A stretch of DNA of 64,000 nucleotides, taken from positions 512,001-576,000 of the forward strand of contig CAWFGE010000013.1 in the NCBI GenBank assembly GCA_963815195.1, in the 5' to 3' direction. Below the pieces are notes generated by a model. It ran no database searches and had not been told where the DNA came from. It was given only the letters and a program-made list of their open reading frames with translations. The DNA is from an uncultured Planctomycetaceae bacterium. Its GTDB lineage: Bacteria; Planctomycetota; Planctomycetia; Planctomycetales; Planctomycetaceae. Below, one piece after another: positions 16,738-43,024 of the stretch. Made by a program: the position numbers and the translations under genes. The stretch's first letter is position 1. Each line of letters begins with the position of its first letter.

Positions 16738-16741
16738 TTCG

Positions 16742-20461: not shown

Positions 20462-20470
20462 GGCGTTCGG

Positions 20471-20543
20471 CCCCTCACCCTAACCCTCTCCCCCAAGGGG
20501 AGAGGGGATAAGACGGAACTCACCCTCTCCCCCAAGGGGAGGA
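20471..20543. repeat. BoxC-like repeat (CCCTCACCCTAACCCTCTCCC...GGGAGAGGG) plus partial second copy
   Basis: Pyrimidine tail and hairpin directly after a stop codon. Confidence 0.75.
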
Positions 20544-20626
20544 CGGACAAAACTGAGTATTTTTGAAACCAACGGCTTTCTTCAGCCAATTTTTGAAAAC
20601 ACCTTCTTTTTCAAAGGAATTGCTTC

Positions 20627-21935
20627 ATGGCCATTCATCAAACTTGCGACGGAATGAAACGACGGGATTTCCTGAAAGCCGGTGCCTTGGGCGCGGGCGG
20701 GCTGACCTTGTCCAGCTATCTCCAACTGGCCCAAGCCGGCGATGTCCGCGATGATGCCCCCGCCAAAGCCGCGATCTTCATCAACCTCACCGGCGGCCCG
20801 ACGCACATGGACACCTTCGACTTGAAGCCGGACGCCCCGGCCGAGTACCGCGGGTTGTTCAATCCCATCAAGACCAACGTCGACGGCATCGAAATCTGCG
20901 AGCATATGCCCAAGCTCGCCCAGACGATGGATAAGTTCGTGATCCTCCGCGGCGTGTCCCACACTTTGGGGGCCCACCAACTGGGAACCGAATACGTCAA
21001 CACCGGCAACCGGCCGCTGCCTTCGATCGAATACCCCGGCTACGGTGCCGTGGCGACGAAAGAAGCGAAAACCATCGAACCGGACCTGCCCCCGTTCGTC
21101 TCCGTGGGCAACTCCAACCAGAAGCCTGGCTTTCTGGGCGTGAAATACGCGGCCCTCAACACCGGCTCCACGCCGCGCCGGGCAACCGTTCAGCGTGCGG
21201 GGCATCACCCTGGGCAACGGCGTCACCATCAAAGAAATCGAAAAACGCCAAACACTCTTGGGCGATCTCGACAAGACCTTCCAAGGCTTCGAAAAGGACA
21301 GCCAACTCCTCGAAGGCCTGGATCAGTTCGGCGAGCAAGCCTACGCGATGATCACCTCCAAGCGGGCCCGGGAAGCCTTCGACACCAGCAAGGAAGATCC
21401 CGCCTACGCCGCGCCGTTCGGCGATTCGCCCTTCGGGATGAGCTGCCTCCTCGCCAGCCGGCTCGTGGAAAGCGGCGTGCGGTTCGTCACCTTGACTTTG
21501 GGCGGTTGGGACACCCACCAAAACAACTTCTCCAAGCTGAAGGACAGTTTGCTGCCCACGCTCGACGCCGGCTTGTCCTCGCTGTTTAGCGGGCTTGCTC
21601 AAAAAGGCCTGCTGGAATCGACGGCGATCTTCGTCACCGGCGAGTTCGGCCGCACGCCGAAAATCAACAACCGCAGCGATCCGGGCGGCCGGGACCACTA
21701 TCCCCGCTGCATGTTCATGCTCCTGGCGGGCGGCGGGATCAAGGGCGGCCAGGTCATCGGCAAAAGCGACGACAAAGCCACCCAACCGGCCGACGAAGTC
21801 ATCACCCCGGACGACGCCGCGGCCAGCTTCTATTACGCCTTGGGCATCGATTCCAAGAAAGAATACCACACCAACATCGGCCGCCCGATCACGATCGTCC
21901 GCAACGGCAACGTGATCGAAAAACTGTTTGGATGA
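20627..21935 (+). CDS. DUF1501 family protein, frameshift near 21178
   Basis: 'RRDFLKAG', 'GGPTHMDTFDLKP', 'GGWDTH', 'GEFGRTP', 'RDHYP'. Confidence 0.88.
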
Positions 21936-21967
21936 TTGGTCCGTCGTCCTGCTGATTTTTGAAATTG

Positions 21968-22011
21968 AAAACAGGCTCCGGGGAGTTCTTCACCTCGGAG
22001 CCTGTTTTTTT
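21968..22011 (+). terminator. Rho-independent terminator
   Basis: AAAACAGGCTCCG..CGGAGCCTGTTTTTTT. Confidence 0.8.
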
Positions 22012-22151
22012 GTCAAAGGCCGGACTGCTGACAACGGACGACCAGATTTCCCCCCAGGAATCCCTTGCGTCTCGGCCTGGGGGCGATACACTGATGTGGA
22101 TAATGTCGTCTCGAATTGCCCACACGGATTGCGTTTCCAAGGGGGGAAACA

Positions 22152-24435
22152 GTGGCTCAGGTGTTGATGCTGCCTGCGGAACTGGAGGAAATCACCGATC
22201 CACCGCAGGAAGAGGATGAACTCTTAACGGCTGACGAACTCGATACAATTTCGCTGTTCTCGTCGCTGCAAAAAGGCGGGCCGGATTTTCGCCGGTTTCC
22301 GAGCACGACGGTTCTCCGCCGCTGCCGGAAGGGGCGGGTGATTTGCGAGCAGGGCGAAAGCGGCTCGACGGCGTATTTCATTTTGACGACCGAGGATGTG
22401 CTCAAGCTTCGCGAGGTGCAAAAGAGCCTGTTGGAAGCGACGATCCAAGGCAAGGTCGAGGGCAAGCCGGAGTTCGAGCTGCATCCGTATTTCGTCCGGT
22501 ATACGCCGGCGGAACTCGAAGACCGGCTCGCCGAAGTCACCCAGGAAATCGCCGAGCTCAAACAGCGGCTGCATACGCTGCCTCCCTTGGAAGGCGAAAA
22601 CGGTCCGCAGCGGGAAGTGGCCGCGGCGCACCTGTTCGTCAATTTGGATGGCGAGAAAAAGCGTAAAGGCCTCTTGCACCGGATGTTTTCGAAACTCGGC
22701 GGCGGGAAACGGAAACGCCGGATGAATCCCGCGAACATCCTCATCGACGGCCCGGCCGTCATCAGCTCCGCAGACGCTCCGGGGCCCGTTGCACGAAGGG
22801 GAACTCCTGGGCGAGATGAGCTGCATGAACCGGGCCCCGCGGTCGGCCACGGTGCTCGCCGAGCAAGAGTGCTATATGCTGGAAATGCTTCGCAACGTGC
22901 TGGACATGCTGCAGAAGGATCAGGCGTATAAAGAGCGCACGGACGCCATGTACCGCAAGCGGGTGATGGAAACGCACGTCCGGCGGCTCTCGGTGTTTGA
23001 GAATCTCGGCGACGAGGATTTCGAGAAGCTCAAGCAGGCCATCGAACTGGTGGAGTTCGAGTCCGGGCAGACGATCTTCGAGGAAGGCGAACCTTCGGAT
23101 TGTTTCTACGTGATCCGCAGCGGATTGGTGAAGGTCATCAAAAACGCCTGGTACGAATTCCGCAAGGAAGAGTTCCAAGACGAGCATTGGAAGAATCTCG
23201 CCCAGGAATTCGACGACGCGAACGACGAAGACGCCGACATGCGGCAGGCCGTCAAGGAGATGCTCTCCGACGAAGCCCAAGCCGCCTTGGGGGCGGCCAA
23301 GAAAGGCGGAAAGCTCTCCGACGAACATCAGCAGGCGCTGATCGGAAGTCTGAACGAGTTCATCCGCGACGCGAAGCTGCACGAGCAGCTTGGCAAAACC
23401 CGCAAAGAGGTTTTGGAGGTCATCCGCGGGCCGCAGTTGGAAGTCACCATCGCCGAGTATGCCAAGGAAACCAAGAAGTGGTCGGTGCTCGAGTACCGCA
23501 TCTTCCACCGGGCGCTGTTGGAGCGGCTGTTTCCCGGCGGCCTCCCCCGCCAGTTGGAAAAAGCGGGGCCCAGGCGGACGCTGGCCTATTTGGGCCGGGG
23601 GGAGATCATCGGGGAAATGGGCGTGTTTACGGATCCGCCCAGCGCCCGCAGCGCGACATGCGTGGCTTACGACCATCCCGACAGCGGGTTCCAACAGCGG
23701 ATTCCCGACGGGCGGATGGGCGCGGTGCCGTCGCGGGTCGAATTGGTCAAAATCAAGCGGGCCGAGTTCCAGCAGATGCGAAAATCCTCGCCCGCGATCG
23801 ATGCGAAGATCCGCGATTTGATCACGATTCGGAAATTGCAACAGGCGGAAACACAGGACCTGCGGATCGGCGAGTCGGCGGGGATTGCCCCCCAAAGCCG
23901 GGAGTTCGAGCGGCTGGGCCTGATCCAGGGCCAGAAGCTGATGCTGATCGACCTGGACCGCTGCACCCGCTGCAATGCCTGCGTAGAAGCGTGCGTCGCG
24001 TCGCACGAAGACGGCCGCACGCGGTTGTATTTGGACGGCCCGCGGTACGACAAGTTTCTCGTCCCCTTGACCTGCCGAAAGTGCCTGGATCCCGTGTGCA
24101 TGATCGGCTGCCCGGTGGGTTCGATCAATCGGGGCGAGAACGGAGAGATCGTCATTCGGGACTGGTGCATCGGCTGCCGGATGTGCGCCGAGCAGTGCCC
24201 GTACGGCTCGATTCAAATGAACGAACTGCGGACGCCCATCGAATTGACGCTGGAGCAAAAGACGATCATCGGGCCGGAGGCGACGCTCAAAGCGGTCGGC
24301 GAGCAAGCGGTGGTTTGCGATTTGTGCAGTTCGCTGCCCAGCAAGGATCCGTCGTGCTGCTACGCCTGCCCGCACGATGCCGCCTTCCGCGTCAACGCTC
24401 AGGAGTTTTTCTTCCAGGACAGTGGGAAAGCGTAA
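22152..24435 (+). CDS. Two cyclic-nucleotide-binding domains + C-terminal 4x[4Fe-4S] (DmsB/NrfC-like) domain, frameshift near 22770
   Basis: 'ICEQGESG..AYFI'/'GELLGEM...PRSATV'; 'IFEEGEPSDCFYVIRSG'/'GEIIGEM...RSAT'; Cys groups CTRCNAC...C, CRKC....C...CP, CIGCRMC...CP, CDLC...C...CP. Confidence 0.9.
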
Positions 24436-24436
24436 T

Positions 24437-24582
24437 GGCGAGCGGGGGGGCGTGAGTCCCCTGGTTCTGTGAAAACGCTGAATTCACCGATGAATGGAAT
24501 GCCTTCCACATGAAAACCCCTAAGAGATCCCGGATCTTGAGAGACTCGCGAATGACCAGGGGGCTCACGCCCCCCGCTCGCC
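24437..24582. repeat. REP-like inverted repeat inside the redox operon
   Basis: GGCGAGCGGGGGGGCGTGAGTCCCCTGGT (24437-24465) / ACCAGGGGGCTCACGCCCCCCGCTCGCC (24555-24582). Confidence 0.8.
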
Positions 24583-24601
24583 TGAGCATAAAGGAACTCG
24601 C

Positions 24602-26759
24602 ATGCTGATCGATCGAACACAACGGACGTGGGCTTGGATTTCGTTCCTCATCTTCCTGGCCGCGACGGGAAGCTATGCCGTCTATGCCGCCACCGTCCCC
24701 AACGGGCCCCACGGCGGCAGCGTGATGGGGCTGATCTACGGGATCATCGGCACCGCGTTTATGGTCTTCGCCGGGCTCTTGGCCGCGCGCAAACGCGTCC
24801 CGCATTGGCGATTGGGCAGCGGCCAATTCTGGCTCCGCGGGCACCTTTGGCTGGGCACCTTGAGCATGCCGCTGATTTTGTACCACGCCGGCTTCGGCTG
24901 GGGCGGGCTATTGGAAAACGTGCTGTGGGTGCTGTTCGGGCTGGTGTTTTTCAGCGGGCTTTACGGCATCCTGGTGCAGCAGGTTTTGCCGCGGATCCTC
25001 ACCACCCGCGTGCCGCTCGAAACCTTCCCCGCCCAGATCCCTTATCAGTGCCAGCGGATGCAGTTTCTGACGGACCATCTGGTCGCGGAAAGCTGCGGGA
25101 AGCTCGACATCCACGATGAGCCGATCTTTCAGACCTTCAAGAAACTCGCCGAGTTCGGAGCGACGGCCGGCCGGGACGAACTTCCCAACTGGCCCGACCA
25201 GGTTCCCGAGGAATTGCGAGGCTTGCTTTTGGATCTTTCCACGCACTGCAAACAACAGGGCTGGATCAGCCAGGTCAATAATTTCCCCAAAATGCTGTCC
25301 GAGATGTATAAGGATGTCGAACCGGAAGAGGCTCCCAAAAAGGCCGCGGCCAAAAAAACAGACGCCGGCGAGAAAAAGCCTTCGCCCCTGGACCAGATGA
25401 AAGCCAAGAAAAAGGCGGCCCCCGCGGAAGGGGCGGAGAAAAAGCTCTCGCCCCTGGAGCAAATGAAGGCCAAAGCCGCGAAGAAGAAAGCCGCCGGAGA
25501 CGAAGGCGGCGAGAAGAAAGCCGCCGAAGGAGGCGGGGAAAAGAAGCTATCCCCCCTCGAGCAGATGCGCGCGAAAGCCGCGAAGAAAAAAGCCGCCGAA
25601 GAGGGAGGGGCCGAAAAGAAAGCCGCGGAAGGCGGCGGGGAAAAGAAGCTTTCCCCCCTCGAGCAGATGCGCCGCGAAAGCCGCCGCCAAGAAGAAATCC
25701 GCCGAAGAAGGAAGCGGATCAGAAGCCAAAAAGCCGTCGCCTTTGGAGCAAGCCCGGGCTCAAGCCGCGGCCAAACAGGGAGGCAACGGGGCAAGGCCGT
25801 CGCCTTTGGAATTGGCCCGCGAGCAGGCGGAGGGCGCGGGCGAATTGGCGGGCATGGCTCCCGAAGACTCCGGGAAGACGATCAACTTTTCTCCCGAGCA
25901 AGCGGCGATCCTCGCCAACGCGGCCCAGGAGCGGCAAGCCAACGGCAGCGGCGAAGCGGCTCAGGAAGGCCCGATCATCGTCCCTTGTCCCGAATGCGAG
26001 CACGAGTTGAAACTGCCCGACCGCAGCCTGCTCGGACGCAAAGCCCGCTGCCCGATGTGCAGCTTCAAATTCATCCTGGAGCTTGCCGAGGAACCGGAAC
26101 CGGAACCGGTGGCCGTGGGCGCCGCGGTGGCGGAAGCAGGCCCGTCCCCATTGAAGCAAGCCATGATGCAGGATGCCGGCAAGCCCGCCCAAAAGCCCGC
26201 GGGCAAAATGTCTCCCCTCGAGCAGATGCGCGCCAAAGCCAAGAAAAAGACCGCCGCCGGCGGGGGAGGCGGAGGCACGGCGACCGCCGAGAAACCCATG
26301 TCGCCCATCGAAAAGATGCGGGCCTCCAAAGCGAAAAAAGCCGCCCCCGCCGCCAAGAAGTCCAAAAAGAAAGCCACGCTCAAGGTCCCCAAAAAAACCA
26401 AGAAAACCTACACCGGCCCGATTCCCCGGGCAGGCGAACTCCGGCAATTCTACCTCCAGCAAATCCGGCCGTTCCTGGGCGTCGACAGCCGCTATAACCC
26501 CCAACTGGCCATCGACGCCCAGTCCAAACGGCTGTTCAACCAGATGCGGTCCGAGTTGCCCGGCGAACTGCACGACACCCTCAATCAACTCGAAGATTCC
26601 GTGGACGAGCGCCGGCAGTTTTCGCTGCAAAGCCGGGTCCATCATTGGCTGCACTGGTGGCTGTATCTGCACATCCCCCTGTCGATGGCGCTCTATCTCC
26701 TCGTCATCGCCCACATCGTCATGGCCCTCATCGTCGATCCCCAACTGTTCTGGGGCTGA
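24602..26759 (+). CDS. Membrane protein, putative di-heme b, with Lys/Ala-rich repeats and zinc ribbon; frameshift near 25671
   Basis: Four N-terminal TM helices and a C-terminal TM helix; two H-x13-H pairs; nine SP[LI]xxxx repeats; CPEC..CPMC. Confidence 0.75.
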
Positions 26760-26833
26760 TGCGGGGCGGAAGGTCGTCTATTGGTCATTGGTAACAGGTC
26801 ATTGGCAACAGGTCATTGGGATTTATCTAAACC

Positions 26834-28521
26834 ATGTCGCAACCGCGTTACAGCCGGCAGTTGTCCGGACGAGTGGAAGTTGAGTTTCATCACCACCCCA
26901 ACCGTTTCCGCCGCTTCACGTGGTGGTCGGCTCTGGTGTGCGTGATTGGCGCGGGGGTCTGGCTGGTCCAGGCGGGGACGCGGGGCGAAAACCGCATCTA
27001 CGAAGCCGGTGCCGTCGCCACCCCGCACGCCATGTTCGAGAACGAATGCCAGCGCTGCCACGTCAACAATTGGGCCCCGCTTCAGCGGCTCACGAGCTTC
27101 ACCGACCAGGTGCATTCCGTGACCAACGAAAAGTGCATCGCCTGCCACATGGGCACGCTGCATCATCAGAATCAGGTGCCGGTGCACGGGGACGGCCCGA
27201 ACGAGTTGTCCTGCGCCAAATGCCACCGGGAACACAAAGGCGACGAAGAACTGGCCCGCGTGACGGACCGCCATTGCACCGACTGCCACGGGAATCTGGA
27301 AACCTCGCCCGGCGCCCGACGTTCGCCAAGCACGTCTGGAGTTTCGAAGTCCCCGAGGGCCATCCGGATTTCAAAATCGAAGAACTCCTCAAGAAGAAGG
27401 ATGGCAACGTCGACATCGCAGAGTCGGATGGCAAACCGATCCACTATGCGTTTCGCGTGCTGGGGTTTTTCTCCCGCGACGGCGAACCCGCCCGCTGGCA
27501 AGACAAGGCCCGCATTCGCTTCAACCACAAGGCCCACCTCAAAGCGATGTTCGACAAGAAGGGCAACCGCATCAAAGGCGAACGCCAGGATGACATCCGC
27601 CACCGCGGAGGCGACAAGGACGGCGAATACATCGGCTATCCGGGAAGCTGCATGGACTGCCACGAGTTCGACGTGGAACGCCGCTATATGAAACCCATCG
27701 TTTACGAGAAACATTGCCAGGAATGCCATCCCCTCACGTTCGACGTGGATAAGTTCACGGAGCAAATCGACCCGGCCACCGGGGAGGCCAAAAAGGTCGC
27801 CGTCACCGTGCCCCACGATCGGACCGACGTGGTGCGGGGGTATCTCTCGAAGGTGTATACGATCGACCCGCTGGGGGAGAAAGCCGACGGGCCAAAGCCG
27901 GCGGAGGACGACCCGCTCGCCGAGCTTCGGCGGGGCTTTCCGGGGCGGGATTTCGAGGCGAGCTTCAACGCCGAAGAGGCCCGGAAGATCCGCGAAAAAC
28001 TCGGCGAGCAGGAAAAAGCCTTGTATCCGCTCGACTTCGTGAAGAACGAACTCGTGCGCCGGGAAGGTCAGAAGGTGCTGTTTAAGGAAAACGGCGCGTG
28101 CGCGCTGTGCCACGACATCGATAAGTCCGAGGACCCGAAAGAGCAGCCGTGGTCGATCGTTTCCCCGCAGATTCCCGACCGTTGGTACAAGCACAGTTGG
28201 TTCCGGCACGACAGCCACCGCATGTTGAGCTGCGTAGAATGCCACAACGACCTCATCAGCGGGCATCCCGTTTACGAAAGCGCCAGCACCGGCGACGTGT
28301 TAATGCCCACCCGCGCCTCGTGCGTCCAGTGCCATCGCACCGGTTTTGTCGAGAAGATCGGCGATAGCGATGTGCACCTGCTTGGGGCCCGCGTGGATTG
28401 TGTGGAATGTCATGGATACCATGATTACAGCAAAGAAGACTTCGACGGGAATCTGAAATTGGATTTGACACGTCAAGAAGAGAAATCCCTTACGACACCG
28501 GCGGGCCACGGATCGAAATAA
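26834..28521 (+). CDS. Membrane-anchored decaheme cytochrome c, frameshift near 27315
   Basis: Ten CXXCH: CQRCH, CIACH, CAKCH, CTDCH, CMDCH, CQECH, CALCH, CVECH, CVQCH, CVECH; N-terminal TM helix. Confidence 0.88.
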
Positions 28522-28738
28522 ACGCTTAGACACCGGCGAATTCCGGACGGGCTTTGCGTGCCTCTTGCGCGCGCCCGTTTGCCATTATTTCCATCGCCGT
28601 GCGAATTGGCCGAGGTCGGACATTCTCCCAAGACGCACGTTACCGATTGGCAACCGATCACGGGCTCATCAGGGGGGATGTCTCGGCCCTCCGCCTTGGC
28701 GGTTCAATCGAAATATCATGAATCGTGGGAATCAAACT

Positions 28739-30290
28739 ATGGGACGTAACCTCGGTCGGCTTTTGATCTGTGTCCCGCCGGCTTTGGCTCTGGGGCTGTT
28801 CTTCCTGGGGGATCGCTCTGCGGGCATCGAACCCGATCCCGGCATCCGCGTTGCATCGGCCACGTCGGATTCCGGTCAGCCCGGCGTCATCCTGCCCGGC
28901 GACTTCGGCGCATCGGGATTATCGGGGCCGAGGTACGTCGGAGCGGCGGGATGCGCGGCGGCGAGCTGCCACGGCGGGGACGGTCTCAAAGGCACCCTGG
29001 GCAGCGAGCACAGCATTTGGATTCAAAAGGACCCGCACGCCGGAGCTTACGCGGTTTTGCTCAATCAGCAGTCCCAGAACATCATCAAACTCCTGAAGAA
29101 CTCCCCGCATTACGCCAAAAGGCTCGAAGGCCGCGAGGCCCACGAGACGCGGTTGTGCCTCGACTGCCATTCGGTCGCCCCCGATGCGTCCCAGTTGGCC
29201 GAGGCGCATAAGTTTTCCCTCCGCGACGGCGTGAGCTGCGAAGGTTGCCACGGGCCGGCGGAAAAATGGCTCGATCCCCACAAGCGCTACGATTGGAAAC
29301 TCAAATCGGACGACGAGAAAGCCGCCCTCGGGTTTTGGAATACCGACAACTTGTTGACCCGCGCGGATTTGTGCCGACTGCCACATCGGGTCGAAAGACC
29401 GCGAAGTCAACCATGACCTGATGGCGGCCGGGCATCCGCGTTTGACCTTCGAGATGGCGGCGTACTTCAGCAATCTGCCCCCGCACTGGAACGCGAACGA
29501 AGACCGCCATCGGCACAAGGCGTTCGAGGCCAAGCTGTGGGCGATCGGCCAGCTTGCCGTGGCGGAGAATTCCGTCGAACTCCTCAAAGAACGGGCGGAA
29601 GACAAACAGTACAAAGTCTGGCCCGAGTTCACCGAATACGGCTGCTACGCCTGCCATCACAATCTCCAGCCCAGCAACTGGCGGCAAGAACGCGGCTTCG
29701 CGGGTCGCCGGCCCGGTGGTTATCCCTGGGGCACCTGGCAGTTCCCGGTGCTGGCGATGGTCTCGCCCGAACTCGCGGCCGGTGAACCGAACCCATTTTT
29801 GAACGACAACAGCGTCTATGAAAAACTCAAAAAGGAAATGAGCCGGCCGCTTCCCGATCGAGACAAAGTCAAGGACCTCGCGGGCCAGATGCAGGCGGAG
29901 TTGGACAAGATCGCGGTGCATTTGAATCAGATGTCCCTTTCCGAGCCGGAAATCTTATCTCTCTTACACAAGGTCGCGGGTCCCGAGGGCGGGCAGAAGC
30001 TCGTGGGACAAAACTGGGACGCCGCGGCCCAGGTTTACCTGGCGACGGTGGCGCTCTATCAAGGCCTCGCGGATGTGGAGGGCCGGGCCGGGCAGATTTC
30101 CGATCGGGACAAAGCGATTTTCGAGCATTTCCAGGCCATCCGGAACAATTTGAAATTTCCCGAAGAAAAACCGGACAAGGGCAAAGCGGTGATTTACAAT
30201 AGCCCCAAGACTTTTGAAGAGACCGCGCCCAATCCTGTGGAAGCGATCAAGAGCCAGTTAAGCGGCATCAATCAAGCTGTGCAGCCATAA
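28739..30290 (+). CDS. Pentaheme cytochrome c (c554-like) with helical C-terminus, frameshift near 29365
   Basis: CAAASCH (CX4CH), CLDCH, CEGCH, CADCH (shifted frame), CYACHH; 'AAGHP'. Confidence 0.85.
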
Positions 30291-30305
30291 AATAAGGATC
30301 AATCC

Positions 30306-32189
30306 ATGTCGAAGCGACGCCTCGTCAATCGCTGTTTGATGGGTGCCGTACTGGCCGTGCCCAGCGCGCTGTTAGGCATCTATTCATTAGGCTACGCCCA
30401 AGAACCCCCGGCCGGGACCTCGCTCTACCAACCCGCCCCAGTGCTGCGCATTGCGCAAGCGGATCCGGAGCCGGCTGCCGACAAAAGCGATCTGGCAAAG
30501 TGGGACGTGCCCGGCGGGATGGCATTGGATCCGGATGCGAAGAAGCGATTGTACTTGGGGCTCGCTGATAGTTGCATCAATTGCCATACACGCAATACCG
30601 CACCCCCCGCCCCCAATGCGCCCCAAATTCGAATTCCAGGATTTCCCGTCGTGACGAATGATGGATGGGCCTTATTGAATGAATCGTACACCTGGGCGGG
30701 GCAAGACAAACATTATGGGTCGTACGCCGTACTTCTCAACGACCGTTCGAAGCGAATGGCTCAAATCTTAAAAATCGTGGATGACGAAGGAAACTCGATC
30801 ATCCATCGCGATCTTCGCTGTATTGCTTGTCATTCAGGAATGCCGATTTATGAGATGAAGCGAGATGAAGGTCGTCCAGGAATGATCGACGAGTCCATGG
30901 TGCAGGATAAACGCTTGAGTTTCGGCGTGAGTTGCGAAGGATGTCATGGGTCAGCGGGGGACGCCGATTCTAATGATAAAATTAAGAGTTGGGTCTCTAT
31001 CCATACCTCGAAAACCGAGTGGCGATATAAAGATCCCCACACGAAGGCAGACGAATATGGTTATTTCGATGTACGTTCACCGGTGTCTCGAAGCAGGATG
31101 TGTCTTTCCTGCCATGTTGGTAATGTGCATGAAGGGCGCGTTGTGACACATGAAATGTACGCCGCTGGACATCCTCCCTTGCCCGGATTTGATGTGGAGA
31201 CGTTTTCTCAACAGGAACCCGCACACTGGCGTAACTTCCATGAAAAACCCAAAAAAATTCGGGACGAGTTTTTAGAGAGCACCAAAACATGGCGAACCAC
31301 GGAATGGAATGAAACCGACCTGCACAACACGAGGGATCTCTTGATCGGCGTCCTGGTCAACTTGAGCGAAATGCTAAAACTCAACGCCAACTTGGCCGAT
31401 TCCGATGTGAAGATCCCCATTGGAAGTAAGACGTGGCAGAGTGACGGGAGCCAACAGTGGCCCGAGCTTGCCCAGTTTGCGTGTTACGCTTGTCATCATG
31501 ATCTGCGCGGCGACGGGTGGCGGATTCAACGGACTCCGATCGGCGTTCCAGGCCGTCCACCTCTCCAGGAATGGCCGTTTGCTCTGACAAAACTCGCCGT
31601 GAAATCCACGGGATCCAATCACGAGGAGCTGTTAACGCTGATTGAAAAAGTGAAACAGGCCGGCGTCGACGGCCCGTTCGGCAACCGTGAGGACTTGAAG
31701 ACCCTGGGGCCCAAATTGGCCGCGCAACTCGATGCCGTGGCAAAGGAATTGGAGCAACGGAACATTCCCAGAGAAGCTGCTCAGCCGTTGCTGCTGGATC
31801 TCATCGAACTCGCTGAAAAGGAAACGTTGGATTACGATTCCGCCCGTCAGTTGGTCTGGGCCTTTCGGGTCATCTATGACGACTGGAAGCGAGACCCGAA
31901 TGACAAGAAAGACTTCTTCGAAATCAAGAAAATTGACGAGGTTCCAGGCTGGTATAGTGCGACGGATAATTTAACCGGTGTCAAGCAGATTCTTGCTGGG
32001 TTTGAGGCAGACATTTTGCTCGATCTCCGCAAAGGCCGTTCGACAATCGGGACTGTCGGCCAAGGCGAGGAAAATGAACGCTTGGTGCTGGAATGGGAGC
32101 CCCAAAAGGCGCTTCCCAAGATCGGAAGCTACAATCCGGAAACGGTTCGAAACAAGCTAATGGAATTAAAGCCAATGCTTATGAAGTAG
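30306..32189 (+). CDS. Pentaheme cytochrome c (c554-like), paralog of the preceding gene
   Basis: Signal peptide; CINCH, CIACH, CEGCH, CLSCH, CYACHH; shared 'GVSCEGCHG', 'AAGHP', 'WPE....CYACHH'. Confidence 0.88.
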   Translation: MSKRRLVNRCLMGAVLAVPSALLGIYSLGYAQEPPAGTSLYQPAPVLRIAQADPEPAADKSDLAKWDVPGGMALDPDAKKRLYLGLADSCINCHTRNTAPPAPNAPQIRIPGFPVVTNDGWALLNESYTWAGQDKHYGSYAVLLNDRSKRMAQILKIVDDEGNSIIHRDLRCIACHSGMPIYEMKRDEGRPGMIDESMVQDKRLSFGVSCEGCHGSAGDADSNDKIKSWVSIHTSKTEWRYKDPHTKADEYGYFDVRSPVSRSRMCLSCHVGNVHEGRVVTHEMYAAGHPPLPGFDVETFSQQEPAHWRNFHEKPKKIRDEFLESTKTWRTTEWNETDLHNTRDLLIGVLVNLSEMLKLNANLADSDVKIPIGSKTWQSDGSQQWPELAQFACYACHHDLRGDGWRIQRTPIGVPGRPPLQEWPFALTKLAVKSTGSNHEELLTLIEKVKQAGVDGPFGNREDLKTLGPKLAAQLDAVAKELEQRNIPREAAQPLLLDLIELAEKETLDYDSARQLVWAFRVIYDDWKRDPNDKKDFFEIKKIDEVPGWYSATDNLTGVKQILAGFEADILLDLRKGRSTIGTVGQGEENERLVLEWEPQKALPKIGSYNPETVRNKLMELKPMLMK

Positions 32190-32198
32190 ATCGCATAC

Positions 32199-32240
32199 GA
32201 AAATCCCCCCGCTTACATTGCTGTCAGGGGGGGGATTTTC
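32199..32240. terminator. Bidirectional terminator between the convergent cytochrome genes
   Basis: GAAAATCCCCCC...GGGGGGATTTTC. Confidence 0.75.
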
Positions 32241-32264
32241 ATTTCCTATTCTGATCGGGTTTCG

Positions 32265-35200
32265 TTATTGCCGCCGGGCACCCGCTGGCCGGAAGGCGTC
32301 TTGGGGGATGATGACCGGGTTGGGCTGCGGGATCGGCGGGGCTTTTTGCGGGCTGGGCGGAGTGCCCGGCAGCGGCAGGGCGGTTCCGCCTTTGAGCGGT
32401 CGATACGCCGGGTAGTAGGCCCTGAGGTCCTGTTGGAGCTTCAGTTCCCTATGCTTGGGATCGGCGATCCGGTAGTCCCGGAGGCCGTCGAGCACCGTCC
32501 ACACCCGGCCGTCCGGCCGCTGATACATTCCGTGCTGCTCTTCCAGATTCAGCGGGCGAGCGCCGACGCGGCCGAGCACCGCGATCTGGTTGCCGGACTC
32601 GTCCACCGCCCGGTCGCGGTCCACGCCTTCCGAAAGCGCCAAGGCATGTCCGCCCTTGGGGATCGGGAAGGTCGCGACCAGCCGGGGCGTCGGACGCGGA
32701 CTGAAGCCGCGATAGCCCGGCGTGTTCGTGCCGATCAACTCCACCACCCGCAGGCCGTTCCTGCCGTCCGCGAGATAGGCGAACTCGGTCGTATACGCGA
32801 TGCCCAGCTTGACATCGTGCGCGTCGTTGATGCACCCGTCGGCGTTATAGATCTGATCGATCTTCGGTTCGAGCGGGTTCTTGACATCCACAATCACCAG
32901 CCCTTGATGGCCCCCGGCGACGTAGGCGTAGGTCCGGGCGACATACACGTTGTGGGCTTCTTCGATTTCCACGTGCGAGACGACCTTGGGGTCGGCGAGG
33001 TTCGTGGTGTCGATGACCTTGAGACCTTCCGAATCGCAGACGAAGCCGTAGCGGAACTGCACGCCCACCGACTTGGGATGATGAATCCCCTCGACGACCT
33101 TGCAGAACTTGGGCTTCGTCGGCTCGGAAAGATCGACGATCACGAGGCCCGCATCACAACAGATGTAGGCGTATTCGCCGACGATCTCGATCGCCCGCGC
33201 TCCGCAGAGAATGCCGTCCGGATTGTAGGTCGCAGCCCGTTCGAGGAAGTTATTGAGCGGATTGCCGTCGAGGAGCGTGCCCGCCCCGACCACGACCAGC
33301 CCTTCATACTTGTCGGCGACATAGATGTAGGCATACAGCATGTCGATGGGGGCTTCCATGTTCTCCGGGTGCTGCTTTCGCGTGGGATCGGGGGCGATCG
33401 TCGTGGGAGCCGCCACGTCGGTCGCATACTTGGTCCGCACATAGAAGCGTTGTCCCACGGGCGAGACCGGGGCGGTCACGATGCGTTCCGAGAAGCCTTT
33501 GTGATCCGTGAACGCAATATCGAAGATCCGCAGGCCCATTTCCCCGCAGGCGCAGTACAAATACTCGCCGCGGTGTTGAAGGTTTAAGATTTCCGACTTT
33601 TTGAAGGGATGGAAGATGTTTTCACCGACATCGAAGCCGGGATGCTCGTGGTAGCGATCGAGTTCGTACTCATTCTCCACGTGCTTTTTGTAGTAGTCGG
33701 GGTACACCATTTTGTGCATCGAGCTGCCGATGACGGATTGGGGCTCGTCGCGTTCGGTGACTTGGACCGCGAAGATTCCGTGACTTCCGGCACCGACCCA
33801 GGCGTATTTGCCGATGAAGTTCATGTAGTTCGTGCCCTGCATCAAGAGCTGCGCCATGAGGGCGTTGTTGTCGTTTTGATGCGAGAGGTGGCAGTCGCTG
33901 CAGAGCTTGGTTTCGCCTTTGCCGCGGACGGTGTGCGGGACGTTCGTGCTGAACGCGATGCCGCTCATGCCGTCGCTGGAGATGGTTTGCTGCTGATAAT
34001 AAATCGATTCGCGATTCTTGTTGTACGAGCCGACGTGAATCGCGCACGCGGACCGCACGGGGCCGATCCGCTGCTTGGTGACGATCCCGTCGCGGGCGAG
34101 CATGTAAACCTCGTCGCGGAGCGTTTGCCAGTTGTAGCCGGTGTAGTTGAGGTCCAGGTCGCCTTCGTTGTGCAGTTCCGGCATTTTCTTGTCGGCTTTC
34201 TGCGGCAGATGGCAACCGTAGCAACTGGGGTTCCACGAGGAATGGCAGGCGATGCAGCTCATATTGCCCAGGTTGTGGGCGCATTGGGCTTTCTCCGCGG
34301 GCAGGTTGCCCCAGACCATTTGCTCGCCGGTTTGGTCAAAGCGGACGGTCTTCGAGATTGCCGAGAGCGCGTTGTAGTCGGGGTGGTCGGGATTGATCGT
34401 GTCTTTGACCTGCGTGACTTCCCAACTCATGCCGCGCTCGACCATCGAGTTTTGAATGATCTTCCCGTCCCGCACTTCGAACCGCCGTTTGCCGAAGGGC
34501 GTCCGCATGGCCGTGAGGTTGCGTCCGGGCGGGCCGTTCGGCCGCTCGGCGGCGGCGGGACCGGAGGTCACCATAAATCCGTTGCCGAGTTCCATCGCGT
34601 TCTGGTAGGCGTCGCCGTGGCAATCGACGCACTGGATTTCAATCGCGGCCCGGACTTCGCCGTAGAGCTTGGTATCGCCGTGCACATCCTGGACGAAATG
34701 GCAGTCGATACAGTGCATGCCTTTTTCCAGGTGGATGTCCAGCATGTGCACGGGCACGTTGTCTTTCAGCTTGTCGAGTTCCGCCTCCATCTTTTTGAGC
34801 GACTCGGGCGTCTTTTCGTCGCGGTCGCGGTACAACTGCTTGACGTACTGCGGAATCAGCACCGCCATTTGCAGCTGCGTGTTGGTCGGGTTTTCGATGA
34901 CGTTGCCTTTGTGATCGAGCAGATGCCCGTCGCGGTTTTTCTTGAACACCGTCTGATACACCCAGCCGTGACCGTGGAAGTCGGCGAACTGCGTCTTGGA
35001 CAAATACGGATTGAGTTCGGCGACGCGGGCGAGAAATTCCGGATCGGACCACAGCCCGCGGGCGGAGACGTCGTTGGGGTCGCTCATTTGCGAGCGGACG
35101 AATTCCTCGGAGGTGGGATATCGCTGCTGCTTGGGATACATGTGCTCGCCATCGGTTTCCAGATCCCACCACATGTAGCCCAGGTAGCTGTTCATCACCG

Positions 35201-36545
35201 TGGTGCCGGGGTGCATGTGGCAGACCATGCACTGGCTCGTCGGGATCGCCCGGGTAAAGCGGTGCTCGATCGGATGGCCCGACTCGTCGCTGGGAATCGT
35301 CGGATCGACGCTGGTCACCAACTCATCGAGGTGCGGCGCGGCATAGCCGCGGTTGCCGTATTTCGCATAAGGCCCGGAATGCACCGGCGAGCGGTCGTTG
35401 GCATAGATCACATGGCACGCCGTGCAGCCGCCGTTGCGGTAGTCGCCCGCGTGGTCGTTCGTGCCGATGAAGTTCAGCGTCGGGTCGAGCAGCCGCGTTT
35501 TCTGAAGACCGATGAACACAGGGTCGGTGCGGTTGCCCGTGCCCAGGCCGCGGTTGCCCAGCCGTTCGCGGGGTTTGCCGTTGTCGTTCAAACGTTCGGG
35601 GATGCCGGTCTCGATCACGAACCGCCCGCCTCGCTCAAAGATCCGCAGGACATTGCCCGGCTGGGAGTTTTGATAATGAGGCAGCGGATCGAGAAAGGGC
35701 AAGACGCCTTTGTACTTCATTTCTTCGGGCGTGGGCGGCGGGACGGTTTGCATTCGCTGCGGCACGCCGTGCATGCTGTAGCTTTCGCCGTAGCGCGGCC
35801 ATTTGAAAGGCACGGCTCCGTTGTTGTAGAGGGCCGCCCCCCACAGCATGCAGCCATGGGTCATCATGCTTTTCTTGACTTGGAGGGTTTCCTGGGGATG
35901 GCAGCCCGCGTTGCCGCAACTAATGTGCGCCACCCGCAAATCGCCGGGATTCATAAACCGAATGAACTCCGGGCGTTCGTGGTTGAGCAGGGCATAGCTG
36001 CGAATCGGGTTCGCCGCCGAGATCCACGCATCCGGAAAACGGGGCGAAACGTGGGCCTGATGCTTCACGGTCGAAGTCGGGTCGCCGCCGTGGCAGTCCA
36101 CGCAGCCGATGTTGAGGGCTTTCGAATAATGGGGGTCGTGTTGCGTTTTATGGCATTCCAGGCAGCCCCAACTTTTCGCGCCCGCCATCTCCTTCGTCTG
36201 GTTGAGAAGGTTGAGATTCTGCATCTCCGGCGGAACGGGATAGGGATTCTCCGCGGGAGCGGCCGGCTGGGGAGCGATCGGCGGACCGGCGGGAGCTTCT
36301 CCCACGGCCTGCTCGACTTCGCCGGGCGCGGGCTCGGAAGGTCCGGTTCCCGAAACCTGTTGCACCGCGCGTTTGACTTTCTTGCCGATGCGTTGGCCCA
36401 ACGTTTCCTTGGGAGGAGCGGGGATTTCTTCCGCCGCGACGAATTGGGGGCCGTTGTCCGCGGGCCTCGTCAGCCAGTACACAAACCCGGCCATCACGGC
36501 CAGGCTCGTGCACAGAATCAGCATAGGTATCCTCGCCTGTTTCAT
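32265..36545 (-). CDS. Large multiheme cytochrome c (10 motifs) with C-terminal LVIVD beta-propeller
   Basis: Nine CXXCH plus CGNAGCH; 'LVIVDLSEP', 'LVIVDVKNP', 'YAYVA'; N-terminal TM helix; GGAGG RBS before ATG 36545. Confidence 0.88.
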   Translation of the reverse strand: MKQARIPMLILCTSLAVMAGFVYWLTRPADNGPQFVAAEEIPAPPKETLGQRIGKKVKRAVQQVSGTGPSEPAPGEVEQAVGEAPAGPPIAPQPAAPAENPYPVPPEMQNLNLLNQTKEMAGAKSWGCLECHKTQHDPHYSKALNIGCVDCHGGDPTSTVKHQAHVSPRFPDAWISAANPIRSYALLNHERPEFIRFMNPGDLRVAHISCGNAGCHPQETLQVKKSMMTHGCMLWGAALYNNGAVPFKWPRYGESYSMHGVPQRMQTVPPPTPEEMKYKGVLPFLDPLPHYQNSQPGNVLRIFERGGRFVIETGIPERLNDNGKPRERLGNRGLGTGNRTDPVFIGLQKTRLLDPTLNFIGTNDHAGDYRNGGCTACHVIYANDRSPVHSGPYAKYGNRGYAAPHLDELVTSVDPTIPSDESGHPIEHRFTRAIPTSQCMVCHMHPGTTVMNSYLGYMWWDLETDGEHMYPKQQRYPTSEEFVRSQMSDPNDVSARGLWSDPEFLARVAELNPYLSKTQFADFHGHGWVYQTVFKKNRDGHLLDHKGNVIENPTNTQLQMAVLIPQYVKQLYRDRDEKTPESLKKMEAELDKLKDNVPVHMLDIHLEKGMHCIDCHFVQDVHGDTKLYGEVRAAIEIQCVDCHGDAYQNAMELGNGFMVTSGPAAAERPNGPPGRNLTAMRTPFGKRRFEVRDGKIIQNSMVERGMSWEVTQVKDTINPDHPDYNALSAISKTVRFDQTGEQMVWGNLPAEKAQCAHNLGNMSCIACHSSWNPSCYGCHLPQKADKKMPELHNEGDLDLNYTGYNWQTLRDEVYMLARDGIVTKQRIGPVRSACAIHVGSYNKNRESIYYQQQTISSDGMSGIAFSTNVPHTVRGKGETKLCSDCHLSHQNDNNALMAQLLMQGTNYMNFIGKYAWVGAGSHGIFAVQVTERDEPQSVIGSSMHKMVYPDYYKKHVENEYELDRYHEHPGFDVGENIFHPFKKSEILNLQHRGEYLYCACGEMGLRIFDIAFTDHKGFSERIVTAPVSPVGQRFYVRTKYATDVAAPTTIAPDPTRKQHPENMEAPIDMLYAYIYVADKYEGLVVVGAGTLLDGNPLNNFLERAATYNPDGILCGARAIEIVGEYAYICCDAGLVIVDLSEPTKPKFCKVVEGIHHPKSVGVQFRYGFVCDSEGLKVIDTTNLADPKVVSHVEIEEAHNVYVARTYAYVAGGHQGLVIVDVKNPLEPKIDQIYNADGCINDAHDVKLGIAYTTEFAYLADGRNGLRVVELIGTNTPGYRGFSPRPTPRLVATFPIPKGGHALALSEGVDRDRAVDESGNQIAVLGRVGARPLNLEEQHGMYQRPDGRVWTVLDGLRDYRIADPKHRELKLQQDLRAYYPAYRPLKGGTALPLPGTPPSPQKAPPIPQPNPVIIPQDAFRPAGARRQ

Positions 36546-36764
36546 CAGATTCCGGACCTCCCTATCCAGTCGCCATCCGCTGAGCCGATCCATTGGCGGA
36601 CATCCCGCGCCCGCCGGTCTTGGCAAAAGATCGGGTGTGATAGCGGGATGAGCAAAACGCGTCAAGAGCGATTGTTCATCCGGTTGAAACCAGTGTACTC
36701 CAGTTTCAGTGACCGATTGCGTTGAGCGGAGGAGAGACGCGGATGAAAACGCAGGGACGGAATT

Positions 36765-36800
36765 CAAACCGGCACAGACATTTCTGTCTGCGCCGGTTTG
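36765..36800 (-). terminator. Hairpin after clpP
   Basis: CAAACCGGC.CAGAC / GTCTG.GCCGGTTTG. Confidence 0.55.
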
Positions 36801-36831
36801 GAATGGAACACCGAGGGCTGTCGGAACCTGC

Positions 36832-37435
36832 TTAGTCGCCTGTCGGTTTGGGCATGTGATCGAGAACTTTGTCGATCAAGCCGTATTCTTTGGCTTCGTC
36901 GGCCATCAGGAAATAATCGCGGTCGGTGTCCTGCTCGATTTTGTCCAGCGTTTGGCCGGTATGTTTGAGCAGAATCTGGTTCATGCGGGCCTTGACGCGG
37001 AGGACTTCCTTGGCGTGAATTTCCAATTCCGTGGCCGTGCCTTCCATGCCGGCGAGCGGCTGGTGAATCATGATCCGGCTGTTGGGCAAGTGCATTGCGT
37101 TTGCCCGGGGCTCCCGCGGCCAGGAGCACGGCTCCCATGCTGGCGGCCTGGCCGATGCAGTAGGTGTTCACATCGCAGGTGATGTACTGCATCGTGTCGT
37201 AAATCGCCATGCCCGCTGTGATCGATCCGCCGGGCGAATTGATATACATGTGGATGTCGGCCTTTTCGTCTTCAAACTGTAAGAACAACATCTGGGCCAC
37301 GAGGCTATTGGCGACGGCATCGTTGACCTGGCTCCCCAGAATCACAATGCGGTCTTTGAGCAGCCGGCTGAAAATATCCATCGCCCGCTCTTCGCGGCCG
37401 CTTTTTTCAATGACGTATGGAACGAGTACCGTCAT
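36832..37435 (-). CDS. clpP: ATP-dependent Clp protease proteolytic subunit, frameshift near 37090
   Basis: '[11 protein letters not shown]', 'INSPGGS', 'QAASMG', 'IHQP', 'DTDRD'. Confidence 0.95.
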
Positions 37436-37690
37436 AAGATCATCTCTTTATAAGGGCCGGCCCCGACGGATTCTCCATCAGAGCCACGACCAAATGATAT
37501 GAGGAAATTGAATGGGCCGGTTGACAATCCGAAGCAAATTGCTCTAAACCCAAACGTTTTGCCTTTGTCTGGAGAGGCGACAAACCGACCGGTTTGAAAT
37601 TTCAGGATTTTGGTCATTGGCATTTGTTTCGGATTTCGAGATTCGGATTTTTGCCAAAAGATCGTTCGTCTCGCAAAATCTCAAACGCCT

Positions 37691-38347
37691 TTAAGTGCTG
37701 GACTTTTCTTTTTCGGGACGGGTGAGGACTTCATCGACGAGGCCGTAATCTTTGGCTTCGTGAGCTTTGAGGTAGCGGTCGCGGTCGGTGTCCTTGGCGA
37801 TGACTTCGAGGGGCTGCCCCGTGTGAAAGGCCAGCACCTCGTTAAGGATCTGCCGGGTATCGATGATGTCCTTGGCTTGGATTTCAATATCGGACACCTG
37901 CCCGCCGACTTGCCCGTAGGGCTGGTGGATCATCATTTTGGCATGGGGCAGGGTGTAGCGTTTTCCCTTGGCTCCGCCGGCGACGAGGATCGCTCCGCCG
38001 CTGGCCGCCAGGCCCACGCAGTAGGTGGCGATGTCGCATTCCAGAAACTGCATGGTGTCGTAAATCGCCATCGTGGCTGTCACCGAGCCGCCGGGCGAAT
38101 TGACGTACAGATGCACGTCCTGGTGGCGGTTTTCCGACTGGAGAAACAGGAGTTTCATCACGATCAGGTTGGCCACCGGATCGTTGATCACCCCATCGAG
38201 AAAGACGATGCGGTTTTCGAGGAGCAGGTCTCCAATGCCCATTTGGCGTTGGCGGGTGTAGTCCCCGCGGGCCCGCTGGTTGATCGGAGCGGAATAATCA
38301 GAGCCGGCCCCGGACAAAAACGAGGACATGGCAGGCGGATCGAACAT
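37691..38347 (-). CDS. clpP: Second Clp protease proteolytic subunit
   Basis: 'LLENRIVFL', 'VNSPGGS', 'LAASGG', 'IHQP', 'DTDRD'. Confidence 0.95.
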   Translation of the reverse strand: MFDPPAMSSFLSGAGSDYSAPINQRARGDYTRQRQMGIGDLLLENRIVFLDGVINDPVANLIVMKLLFLQSENRHQDVHLYVNSPGGSVTATMAIYDTMQFLECDIATYCVGLAASGGAILVAGGAKGKRYTLPHAKMMIHQPYGQVGGQVSDIEIQAKDIIDTRQILNEVLAFHTGQPLEVIAKDTDRDRYLKAHEAKDYGLVDEVLTRPEKEKSST

Positions 38348-38555
38348 CAAAGATCCCTTCGTATGGCAAGAACATCCGTTTTGTGAATGGGAGAGCGTTT
38401 GAAATCGCGCCCGGTTGGTGCGCGACATTCGCTCAGGGACTTCAACTGACGTAAGCGTAGTTCATCGCGGTTTTGGTTTGCAAGGTTCGGGTGACAACTG
38501 ATGGATCTCAGAAGCTCTCCCCGAAAAGCACTGGCAAAGCCAGGCAGAATCTGGC

Positions 38556-40027
38556 TTATTCGGCGTCGGCGGTTTCTTCTTCCGGTGGGGCGACCGGCGC
38601 GGCGGCCACGCCGCAGACCGATTGCGGAATCGCCTCGACGCGGCCTTCCTCCGCGTCGGTTTTCATGGGCACTTCCTTAAACTGGCGCGGTCGAGGACCA
38701 CGTCCACCGCTTTCCGCTCGCGGATTTGGGCTTCGAGGTTTTCCATCATGCCCGAGCGAACCAGGCGAGCCCGGACCTTCCGCGGGCTTTCACCCTGCTG
38801 GGCGGCCATGATCGCGATCTCGTAATCCAGTTCTTCGTTGCTGACTTCGATGTTTTCCTTCGTGGCGATCTTGTCGAGAACGAAGTGCTCCTTCAGGGCC
38901 TGCTGGGTGTTGGACACCGCGTTTTGCTGGAGTTCGTTCATGCGGGCCTGGATTTGCTGGCGGGTGAAGCCGGCCTGCTGCATCTCCAATTGCTCCCGGC
39001 GGAGGGCGTTTTCCACCTGCTTCCGGACCAGATCTTCGGGCAGTTCCCAGTCGGCCGACTCGGTGATTTTTTCCAGAACCTGCTCGCGGGTGGACTGCCG
39101 CTGCTCGTAGCGGACCTGGCGTTCGAGCGTCTCGCGGATTTTCTCGCGGAGTTCGTCCACCGACTCCACGCCGATTTCATCGAGAAACGTCTTGTTGAGT
39201 TCCGGCGGCACGTGGCGTTCGATCTCGCGGACGGTGAACTTGGCGTGGACGGTTTCGCCTCGCATTTCCAGGGACTCGGCTTCCTGTGAAACGACGAGAT
39301 CCACTTCGCGGGAATCCCCGACGCCGGCCCCGGTCATCAATTCGCCGAAGTTCGCAAGTTGCGCATCCTGGAACCTCAGGATCGGTTTGAGCTCGACCCG
39401 TTGCCCGGTCATCCGCCGAATCGAGCGGCCGCCCCAAAAGAACTCTCCGTCCAGCCGGAGAAAATCGCCTTCCTCGGCCGCCCCTTCGTGTTTTTCGAAT
39501 TTTCCGAATTGGGACAAAAACCGCTCCTGGTAGCGGTCGACATCGTCGTCGGTCGTTTCGCGGACCGGTCTTTCGATCGTGAGGCCGGTGTAGTCGGGAA
39601 CCTCGAATTCGGGGCGAACTTCCACTTCAAACGAATAGGTGAAATCGCCCTCTTCTGGGATTTCCAGACTCTCCACATCGATGTCCGGCTGGTTGATCGG
39701 GTCCAACTGCTTCTCGGCTTCGAGTTGCCCCAGGCTGTCGATCAGCACCTTTTGCTTGACCTGGTCCGTCATTTCCTTGCGGAATCTCTTGGCGAGAAGC
39801 TCGCGGGGGACATGCCCGATGCGGAAGCCTTTGACCTCGGCGGTCGATTCCAATTCGCCCATCACCTCGTCGAAGTAATGGTCCAAATCGGCGCGGGGCA
39901 CGGTGACATCGACGTGCTTGCGGCAGGGCCCGGCCGTCTCGATTTTGACTTCCAAGTTCAATTTGGGCGCGCCGCCTTCCGCGGTGTCCTCAACGGCGGT
40001 GTCGGGGGTGTGCTCGTCGGTGCTCAT
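38556..40027 (-). CDS. tig: Trigger factor, frameshift near 38680
   Basis: Ribosome-binding motif 'GFRIGHVP'; FKBP-like middle; position upstream of clpP; shifted tail ...EEETADAE*. Confidence 0.93.
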
Positions 40028-43019: not shown

Positions 43020-43024
43020 TAATC

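Follow-up and report, generated by a model that had tools for sequence, protein, structure and literature searches.

A multiheme gene cluster of an uncultured Planctomycetaceae bacterium as a candidate cyclic-nucleotide-regulated electron line across the cell envelope

A 64,000-nt stretch of DNA from an uncultured Planctomycetaceae bacterium (contig CAWFGE010000013.1 of assembly GCA_963815195.1, positions 512,001 to 576,000, forward strand; hereafter the window) contains a cluster of genes for an iron-sulphur protein with cyclic nucleotide monophosphate (cNMP)-binding domains, a di-heme-b-like membrane protein and multiheme cytochromes c. The genes are labelled E, F, G, A4, A5 and H, and f3 and f6 denote two H-associated genes elsewhere in the same genome (G000, with contigs C12, C13, C15 and C20; L numbers refer to individual loci). 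The reading that we prefer, and to which we give roughly even odds (about 0.5), is that the products of the cluster form the inner and periplasmic parts of an outward electron line, regulated by cAMP or cGMP, that runs from E through F, G and the pentahemes to H. Cytoplasmic E would be seated on the membrane protein F, and electrons would pass from its four [4Fe-4S] clusters to the two b-hemes of F and on to the decaheme G, which is anchored, and from there by way of the pentahemes A4 and A5 to the conserved ten-heme propeller protein H, the partners of which would be the outer-membrane barrel f3 and the HbpS-like f6. Flow would usually be outward from NAD(P)H-level donors; in the window's lineage, with no input module on E, the electrons would come from a donor encoded elsewhere. 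Binding of cAMP or cGMP to the tandem domains of E would switch or tune the flow. The features are as follows, with AF2 standing for AlphaFold2 and IMP for inner-membrane protein.

21968..22011, + strand: terminator-like hairpin that parts the cluster from the upstream gene (sequence; fold of 21940-22030, z -6.4, 0/200 shuffles)
22152..24435, + strand: E, PtdE-like, two cNMP domains and 4x[4Fe-4S] (Pfam, NCBIfam and PDB sequence matches, AF2 of a homologue, motif conservation)
24602..26759, + strand: F, PtdF / PCC4 IMP-like putative di-heme-b membrane protein (motifs, identity to PtdF-type proteins, IMP definition in PMC5566968)
26834..28521, + strand: G, PtdG-like decaheme cytochrome c with one N-terminal hydrophobic helix (10 CXXCH, His conservation, weak PtdG identity)
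28739..30290, + strand: A4, exported pentaheme, PtdD-related, with a cytochrome c554-like core (PF13435, profile matches, His conservation)
30306..32189, + strand: A5, exported pentaheme (5 CXXCH), A4 paralogue, intact (motif count, Pfam, family profile, His conservation)
32199..32240, no strand assigned: hairpin in the gap where A5 and H converge, likely to terminate in both directions (z -4.2 on +, -4.3 on -)
32265..36545, - strand: H, 1426-aa decaheme (9 CXXCH and 1 CX4CH) with an LVIVD propeller, intact (PF08309, AF2, conservation)

Homologues from named organisms likewise place the host among the planctomycetes, and a soil metagenome run contains 46% of the sampled words, with no RNA run among the matches listed. 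A six-frame count gives 28 CXXCH motifs within the genes (G 10, A4 4, A5 5, H 9) and two CX4CH motifs, at 28952 in A4 and 35918 in H, which bears out the inventory of five co-directional genes and a convergent H given in an initial annotation of this DNA. One further CXXCH match, at 27415, is antisense and off-frame, and the remainder of the window outside 22000-36800 holds just four. The gaps between the five co-directional genes are 166, 74, 217 and 15 bp. The same annotation knew of no characterised system of this kind; the core is indeed uncharacterised, but its E-F-G part has twice been described in silico, as PCC4 subgroup II and as ptdEFG, both of them genome predictions only. In the available sections of He et al. 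(2017; PMC5566968), PCC4 comprises a porin, cytochromes with four, five and ten hemes and an IMP with SGXXG on transmembrane helix 4 (TM4) and WX3HX13H on TM3 and TM5. Subgroup II, which occurs in Planctomycetes, has an Fe-S gene (pfam13247) immediately upstream of that for the IMP, whereas subgroup I lacks the Fe-S gene. The IMP is proposed to be quinone-active, with inward flow drawn for iron oxidisers. In the ptdABCDEFG cluster, as presented in the accessible part of Elbon et al. (10.1101/2023.11.21.568154), PtdE is a cNMP/4Fe-4S protein of unknown function that is said to have two clusters, ptdF encodes a ferric-reductase-like transmembrane protein and ptdG a decaheme; of the other members, PtdA is a pentaheme that ends in a beta-sandwich, PtdB a porin, PtdC an FAD/NAD(P) oxidoreductase and PtdD a tetraheme.

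In E a pair of cNMP-binding domains, both carrying a large helical insertion, precedes a DmsB/HycB-type 4x[4Fe-4S] domain, and there is no input domain. The cNMP domains match Pfam PF00027 (E 4e-21) and the ferredoxin matches PF13247 with 32 bits against a cut-off of 26.2. The beta-roll with a phosphate-binding cassette G-E...R-x-A is present in the E domains; G-E and R-[ST/N]-A of both cassettes are kept in 119-120 of 120 homologues, as are all 16 cysteines of the four 4-Cys ferredoxin motifs. Judged by this conservation both pockets are intact, in agreement with the cNMP-sensing domains originally proposed, and binding of cAMP or cGMP is predicted. The best PDB sequence match of E is to HycB3 of the hydrogen-dependent CO2 reductase (E 6e-15), with PKA/PKG regulatory domains also found, and when the AF2 model of an intact homologue (P0108, 76-86% identical, pLDDT 77) is submitted to Foldseek, the tandem cyclic-nucleotide-binding (CNB) domains of PKA-R come first and HycB is returned for the ferredoxin part. 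E thus shares the tandem CNB fold and intact phosphate-binding cassettes with PKA/PKG, but its output is a ferredoxin, not a kinase, and each CNB domain is interrupted by a helical insertion. The four 4-Cys motifs are common to the DmsB/NrfC/PsrB and HycB/HydN ferredoxins, although the NCBIfam scores of E are all far under cut-off, E is fused to cNMP domains and its cluster has no molybdopterin or hydrogenase subunit. An ordinary counterpart of the E ferredoxin is found on C12 (L052:6857-12138), where there is a molybdopterin oxidoreductase with a DmsB-DmsC fusion. Second, stand-alone E paralogues are seen in two same-genus genomes (L030:14581-17913 and L031:14343-17936; 1111 and 1198 aa), with F and G not nearby.

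The idea in the initial annotation that cNMP domains take the place of an enzyme at the cytoplasmic end does not hold as a general design, since most relatives keep these domains together with an input. A NuoG-like Fe-S head is part of 16 related E proteins, next to a fused NuoEF; in Sphingobium, E includes a pyridine-nucleotide-disulphide oxidoreductase domain; and at ptd-type loci an FAD/NAD/2Fe-2S reductase is encoded separately. Such fusion or linkage of NADH- or NADPH-oxidising modules to E in relatives is the reason for taking the usual flow to be outward. An inward chain, in which an outside donor such as Fe(II), Mn(II) or humics would reduce H, the pentahemes and G and the electrons would enter the quinone pool or E, is the direction drawn for PCC4 in iron oxidisers (PMC5566968, sections as above). 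The named hosts of the present genes, though, mostly belong to heterotroph lineages that are not known iron oxidisers. With linked NuoEF and flavin NAD(P) modules it is the outward direction that would be downhill, on established potentials, and an inward chain seems quite improbable. The window's E falls in an input-less group (11 rows, on one side of a 98/100 branch), in a tree whose open root and long branches allow no order of input gain or loss to be read. In two other input-less genomes a stand-alone fused NuoEF is found (L144:6041-7762 and L145:7379-9046), which reaches 47% identity to those linked to the clusters, with no control against other NuoEF fusions, and has no NuoG-like neighbour in the open reading frame listing. 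The window's genome has NuoD, membrane Nuo subunits and cytochrome c assembly genes. At 877-884 kb of C13 and 61-65 kb of C20, NuoD, H, L, M and others are present with no NuoE, NuoF or NuoG-motif match, possibly reflecting a headless complex I or an assembly gap.

F contains SGXXG and two WX3HX13H motifs, both of the latter being present in every full-length homologue listed, and is 30-35% identical to the PtdF-type proteins of ptd-type loci. HX13H on TM3 and TM5 is shared with the ferric-reductase transmembrane domain of MsrQ/NOX/FRE, as described in the same sections of PMC5566968, but F has no ferric-reductase match in Pfam, where only PF01292 appears, under cut-off, and neither its sequence nor its profile finds a relative in the PDB. 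An insert of about 400 aa between TM4 and TM5 carries eight SP[LI]x repeats and a CxxC..CxxC ribbon, and this long form is seen only in F of the input-less lineage (seven of the full-length F loci listed). At 25380-26310 of the window the insert reads as eight K/M-x-SP[LI]E-Q-M-R-A-like copies, a Lys/Ala/Gly-rich linker and a CxxC-18-CxxC ribbon.

Modelling supports docking of the E ferredoxin on the cytoplasmic loops of F, the first step of the wire from Fe-S clusters to membrane heme that had been suggested at the outset. The input was F with the second cNMP domain and ferredoxin of E, taken from genome G029, which has an input-less E and a short F, and the model scored 0.66 whereas the best of three controls scored 0.00. 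Of 157 solved complexes 116 attain the mark that the model passes, as do 2 of 215 mismatched pairs; these figures are rough here given our own alignments and the ligands riding along. The runs share at least 59% of contacts and the partner pLDDT is at least 69. On the E side the modelled interface is formed by the ferredoxin domain only, through its first and fourth Cys motifs, and on the F side by the TM2-TM3 loop and the post-TM4 loop, beside W85-x3-H89; these loops are better conserved than the remainder of F (0.49 against 0.30).

Beyond F, ten proximal and ten further near-invariant histidines are found in G (34 homologues), five proximal and five distal conserved histidines in A4 (52 homologues) and five proximal and six further conserved histidines in A5 (32 homologues). 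Because of these counts the c-hemes of G and the pentahemes fit bis-His wires, consistent with the multiheme wire first proposed, and the ligation would be through these residues. A4 has four CXXCH and one CX4CH and matches PF13435, and the A4/A5 family profile matches cytochrome c554 (1BVB, E 6e-8) and, at only E 0.07, T. tepidum c552 (5ZE8). In hhalign, A4 matches the PtdD-type tetraheme with 98.9% over 162 columns: the four-heme core of A4/A5 is homologous to PtdD, and A4 and A5 bear an additional fifth heme. An assignment of the pentahemes to PtdA was dropped for PtdD, as the PtdA-type profile alignment covers just 42 columns with 87.8%, and MtrA/DmsE was rejected as the identity of G (TIGR03508, 19-22 bits against a cut-off of 192). 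A third c554-like multiheme, also an A4/A5 paralogue, is encoded on C12 (L139:6618-8597).

H is exported or anchored and combines ten hemes with a C-terminal seven-bladed LVIVD beta-propeller (PF08309). The AF2 model of residues 140-1339 has a pTM of 0.85, and the propeller matches 6NAU (Z 30.4, root-mean-square deviation 2.6, 297 aligned) among fold matches that are generic and tied. The family counts at least 6,836 members after clustering at 90% (E<=1e-30) and lacks a PDB sequence match. No sequence match of H was found to hydroxylamine oxidoreductase, NrfA, cytochrome cd1 or hydrazine synthase, the fold lists being filled by the propeller with the heme region barely probed; that these lists contain no match to the heme region is not evidence of a new fold. 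Identity of H with Geobacter ExtM/N/O was rejected on a score far under cut-off (62.7 against 800). A Tenderiales LVIVD protein, unrelated to H, is not described as a cytochrome in the available part of 10.1101/2022.05.06.490989. The hosts of H include Planctomycetota, Acidobacteriota, Sphingomonadales and others, with Sphingobium herbicidovorans and Gemmata algarum among cultured strains; E is found in Thalassoroseus.

The outer-membrane barrel f3 is likened to the alginate-export family by language-model features (0.96, 204/256) and pairwise comparison with the PtdB-type barrel shows no similarity (E 0.47). Neither f3 nor the HbpS-like f6 is on the window's contig; both lie on C15 of the same genome (C15:690.9-697.8 kb). 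There (L137:8860-15756), f3 has extra HEAT repeats and f6 a matrixin-like and an HbpS-like domain. Barrels of the AlgE type are small, with 18 strands, and too narrow for an MtrA-like insert. A barrel and decahemes occur in MtrCAB / MtoAB and likewise in the wider H system, but f3 is alginate-export-like, G is far from the DmsE/MtrA model and H has no sequence relative in the PDB.

The end point of the line may be of a different kind, in that H would be a new multiheme enzyme carrying out a periplasmic reaction on a solute or a heme/metal complex via f3 and f6, with E, F, G and the pentahemes supplying reductant. This would be compatible with the wire and differ from it in the terminal step, and we consider it a real possibility, at somewhat less than even odds. 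Conservation of H across families, at 57-65%, is far above the values of about 25-45% for the wire proteins, and for its ten hemes there are 13 conserved non-motif histidines and three methionines (70 rows). The likeness and presumed narrowness of f3 point the same way, as do the N-terminal hydrophobic helix of H, with a lipobox-like match in just 6 of 69 homologues, and the combination of heme and propeller, an arrangement also found in cd1 nitrite reductase and hydrazine synthase (by fold rows only). Against this, no active site or substrate has been identified, the propeller matches are generic, and the strict pairing of H with f3 would also fit a porin-cytochrome conduit.

Co-conservation of the genes, which the initial proposal would require, is seen in three overlapping samples in which kin are not independent: 41 relatives, 79 H loci and 201 phylum genomes. 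The H loci were fetched from genomes with names, in Planctomycetota, Acidobacteriota and a few other groups; of 603 found, 80 were kept, with many on short contigs. The order E-F-G-A4-A5 is kept in eight genomes of the family, and among the 41 relatives the 16 with full-length H are also the 16 with an E match (E<=1e-30), one of them having only a short ptd-type E in a fragmented assembly. At the 79 H loci the neighbours are f3 (53), f6 (33), pentahemes (31), G (27), F (23), E (18), fused NuoEF (11), class III cyclases (10) and class II phosphodiesterases (2), the last two confirmed by Pfam, and a convergent layout like that of the window is seen at 29. H and f3 co-occur in an identical set of 32 of the 201 phylum genomes; by hand count, an F match is present in 27 of the 32 and within about 20 kb of H in 19, and H is present in 16 of the 17 genomes where the F match is strongest (E<=1e-50). 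In Sphingobium herbicidovorans, genes for CRP, a CHASE2 cyclase, a pentaheme, f6, f3, H, G, F and E stand together, and 12 Sphingobium records contain both H and E.

About 1.2 cyclases would be expected at the 79 H loci from their density in the window's genome, and the ten observed amount to an about eightfold excess, though again among kin. Because the expected count is exceeded, this supports a real nucleotide link, though not direct gating. The co-occurrence with cyclases or flavoproteins for which the initial annotation proposed to search is found in relatives, in the form of these cyclases and the NuoEF or flavin inputs, and not in the window's cluster. In the window's genome an FHA-cyclase and a matching class II phosphodiesterase lie about 660 kb away on C13. 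Counterparts of this pair (L138:7663-10403, ~1.20 Mb) are linked to the cluster in relatives; here the cyclase is split and seems changed in its metal-binding residues. As to which nucleotide is involved, seven linked planctomycete cyclases (L025, L071, L073, L080, L084, L098 and L102) carry Asp and Gly at the two positions that set substrate specificity, a pair more like the E-G of the guanylyl cyclase Cya2, as given in the available part of PMC4215837, than like K-D/T. The linked cyclases of Acidobacteria, Sphingobium, L054 and L130 keep Lys and Thr, so that across the loci the sites favour neither cAMP nor cGMP. In the main text of PMC5566968, as far as available, there are 0 mentions of cyclic nucleotides, and no literature on H, f3 or direct cNMP gating was found in open-access PubMed Central and bioRxiv.

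Several observations weigh against an outward, nucleotide-regulated line ending in H. H adjoins E-F-G-A4-A5 in only three of the eight family genomes with that order and does not in the other five; five of the 32 H-f3 genomes, all of one family, have no F match (with at most ten candidates scored per genome), and an F match is present in 36 of the 169 genomes without H (hand count). The window's own cluster contains no cyclase, and the FHA-cyclase of the genome looks degenerate or broken. The score of the E-F model may partly mirror likeness to already solved ferredoxin-membrane-anchor complexes. The window's genome, which is 94.6% complete, has 0 matches for PF01512, PF01257 and PF10588 (NuoF, NuoE and the NuoG Fe-S motif), and in tblastn it gives nothing for NuoEF or the PtdC-type query of G017 and only a 29% FNR-type match for that of G019. 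Lastly, since PCC4 subgroup I has no Fe-S gene, F and G may be able to work without E.

It could be that F is a quinol-oxidising cytochrome b with an MsrQ-like role, which would feed G from the quinone pool, while E is a regulatory cap or redox sensor and not the source here. The quinone activity proposed for the IMP and the existence of subgroup I (PMC5566968, in the sections cited) argue for this, as do the lack of an input domain on E and of NuoF in the genome, and the long repeat and ribbon insert of F, confined to this lineage, suggests added regulation. Against it, 16 of 16 cysteines of E stay invariant, the same E is fused to NAD(P)H-side modules in relatives, and the modelled interface sets a cluster pair beside the heme-ligand helix; a quinol-fed F is considered unlikely, and electron entry through E is preferred.

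In comparison with PCC4 subgroup II, as described in those sections, F has the IMP motifs at the corresponding positions (SGXXG on TM4, WX3HX13H on TM3 and TM5), E lies 166 bp upstream of F and the decaheme is shared. Where subgroup II has three multihemes, with four, five and ten hemes, the window has 10, 5, 5 and 10; its cluster has no porin (f3 being on C15), tetraheme, PtdA-type pentaheme or linked reductase, and has instead two PtdD-like pentahemes and the 1426-aa H. With ptd the window shares the order ptdE-ptdF-ptdG, as E-F-G. In blastp against the ptd loci of G017 and G019, reference loci chosen by composition and not from the paper's own sequences, identities are 39-42% for E (E 1e-30 to 1e-34), 30-35% for F (E 3e-11) and 25% for G (E 2e-6). 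The E of the window differs from the ptd description in its four clusters by motif and two large insertions and F in its ~400-aa insert, and H, f3, f6 and the cyclase/phosphodiesterase link are not among the ptd features described in the accessible part. Searching the window's genome by tblastn with ptd-type queries gave no PtdA, no PtdB and, for PtdC, just one weak generic 29% match. By its gene content the window is not a full ptd member, having no PtdA or PtdB, no linked PtdC, PtdD-related pentahemes and, in addition, H; the combination of H, f3 and f6 with swappable inputs and linked cyclases constitutes an undescribed variant. Clusters of the ptd/PCC4 type with two tetrahemes are seen at L050/L034 (G017) and L051/L033 (G019), and G019 has the window's type too.

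Four genes of the cluster are interrupted by a single frame switch each, at ~22770-22790 in E, ~25670-25704 in F, ~27307-27319 in G and ~29361-29374 in A4, while A5 and H read through without a break. Run X1, possibly the source sample, yields short-read contigs that differ by an indel at the breaks of F and A4 (one contig each, depth about 3). Because these contigs differ at two breaks and intact homologues were found for all four genes, the frameshifts are most likely assembly errors. The alternative, a decaying copy that has lost its input and is undergoing pseudogenisation, would account for the four frameshifts, the missing NuoEF and the scattered partner genes, but the short-read contigs contradict two of the four breaks, flanking genes are frameshifted as well, and every ligand is retained in 120 intact full-length homologues that share the input-less build, which makes decay highly improbable.

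The hairpin at 32199-32240 is equalled in stability by 0 of 200 shuffles on the two strands and is absent from the listing of a consensus terminator scan; a scan for sigma-70 promoters was at chance level (4 against 4.5). Directly upstream of H, where relatives have f3, the window has at 36764-40042 what we take from the translations to be two clpP-like genes and a trigger-factor-like gene, with a clpP-like gene likewise frameshifted. The flanks of the cluster (15522-21935 and 41175-44500) presumably hold genes for an extracytoplasmic function (ECF) sigma factor, an anti-sigma-like protein and planctomycete DUF1549/1553- and DUF1501-like proteins.

Control of respiration and electron export by cAMP or cGMP in bacteria is known mainly as transcriptional control, through regulators of the CRP type. 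A wider claim, put forward tentatively and with well under even odds, is that the genes belong to a widespread trans-envelope system in which cAMP or cGMP would directly gate the Fe-S subunit, with swappable inputs (a NuoEF/NuoG head, a flavin reductase or none), linked cyclases and phosphodiesterases, and H as a new class of ten-heme propeller enzyme paired with its own barrel. Direct allosteric control of an electron-transfer chain would, if true, be a new kind of regulation. The H family runs to thousands of large multiheme proteins, for which no relative is solved and the literature searched has no description, and since H and E are found in cultured strains, the question can be tested at the bench.

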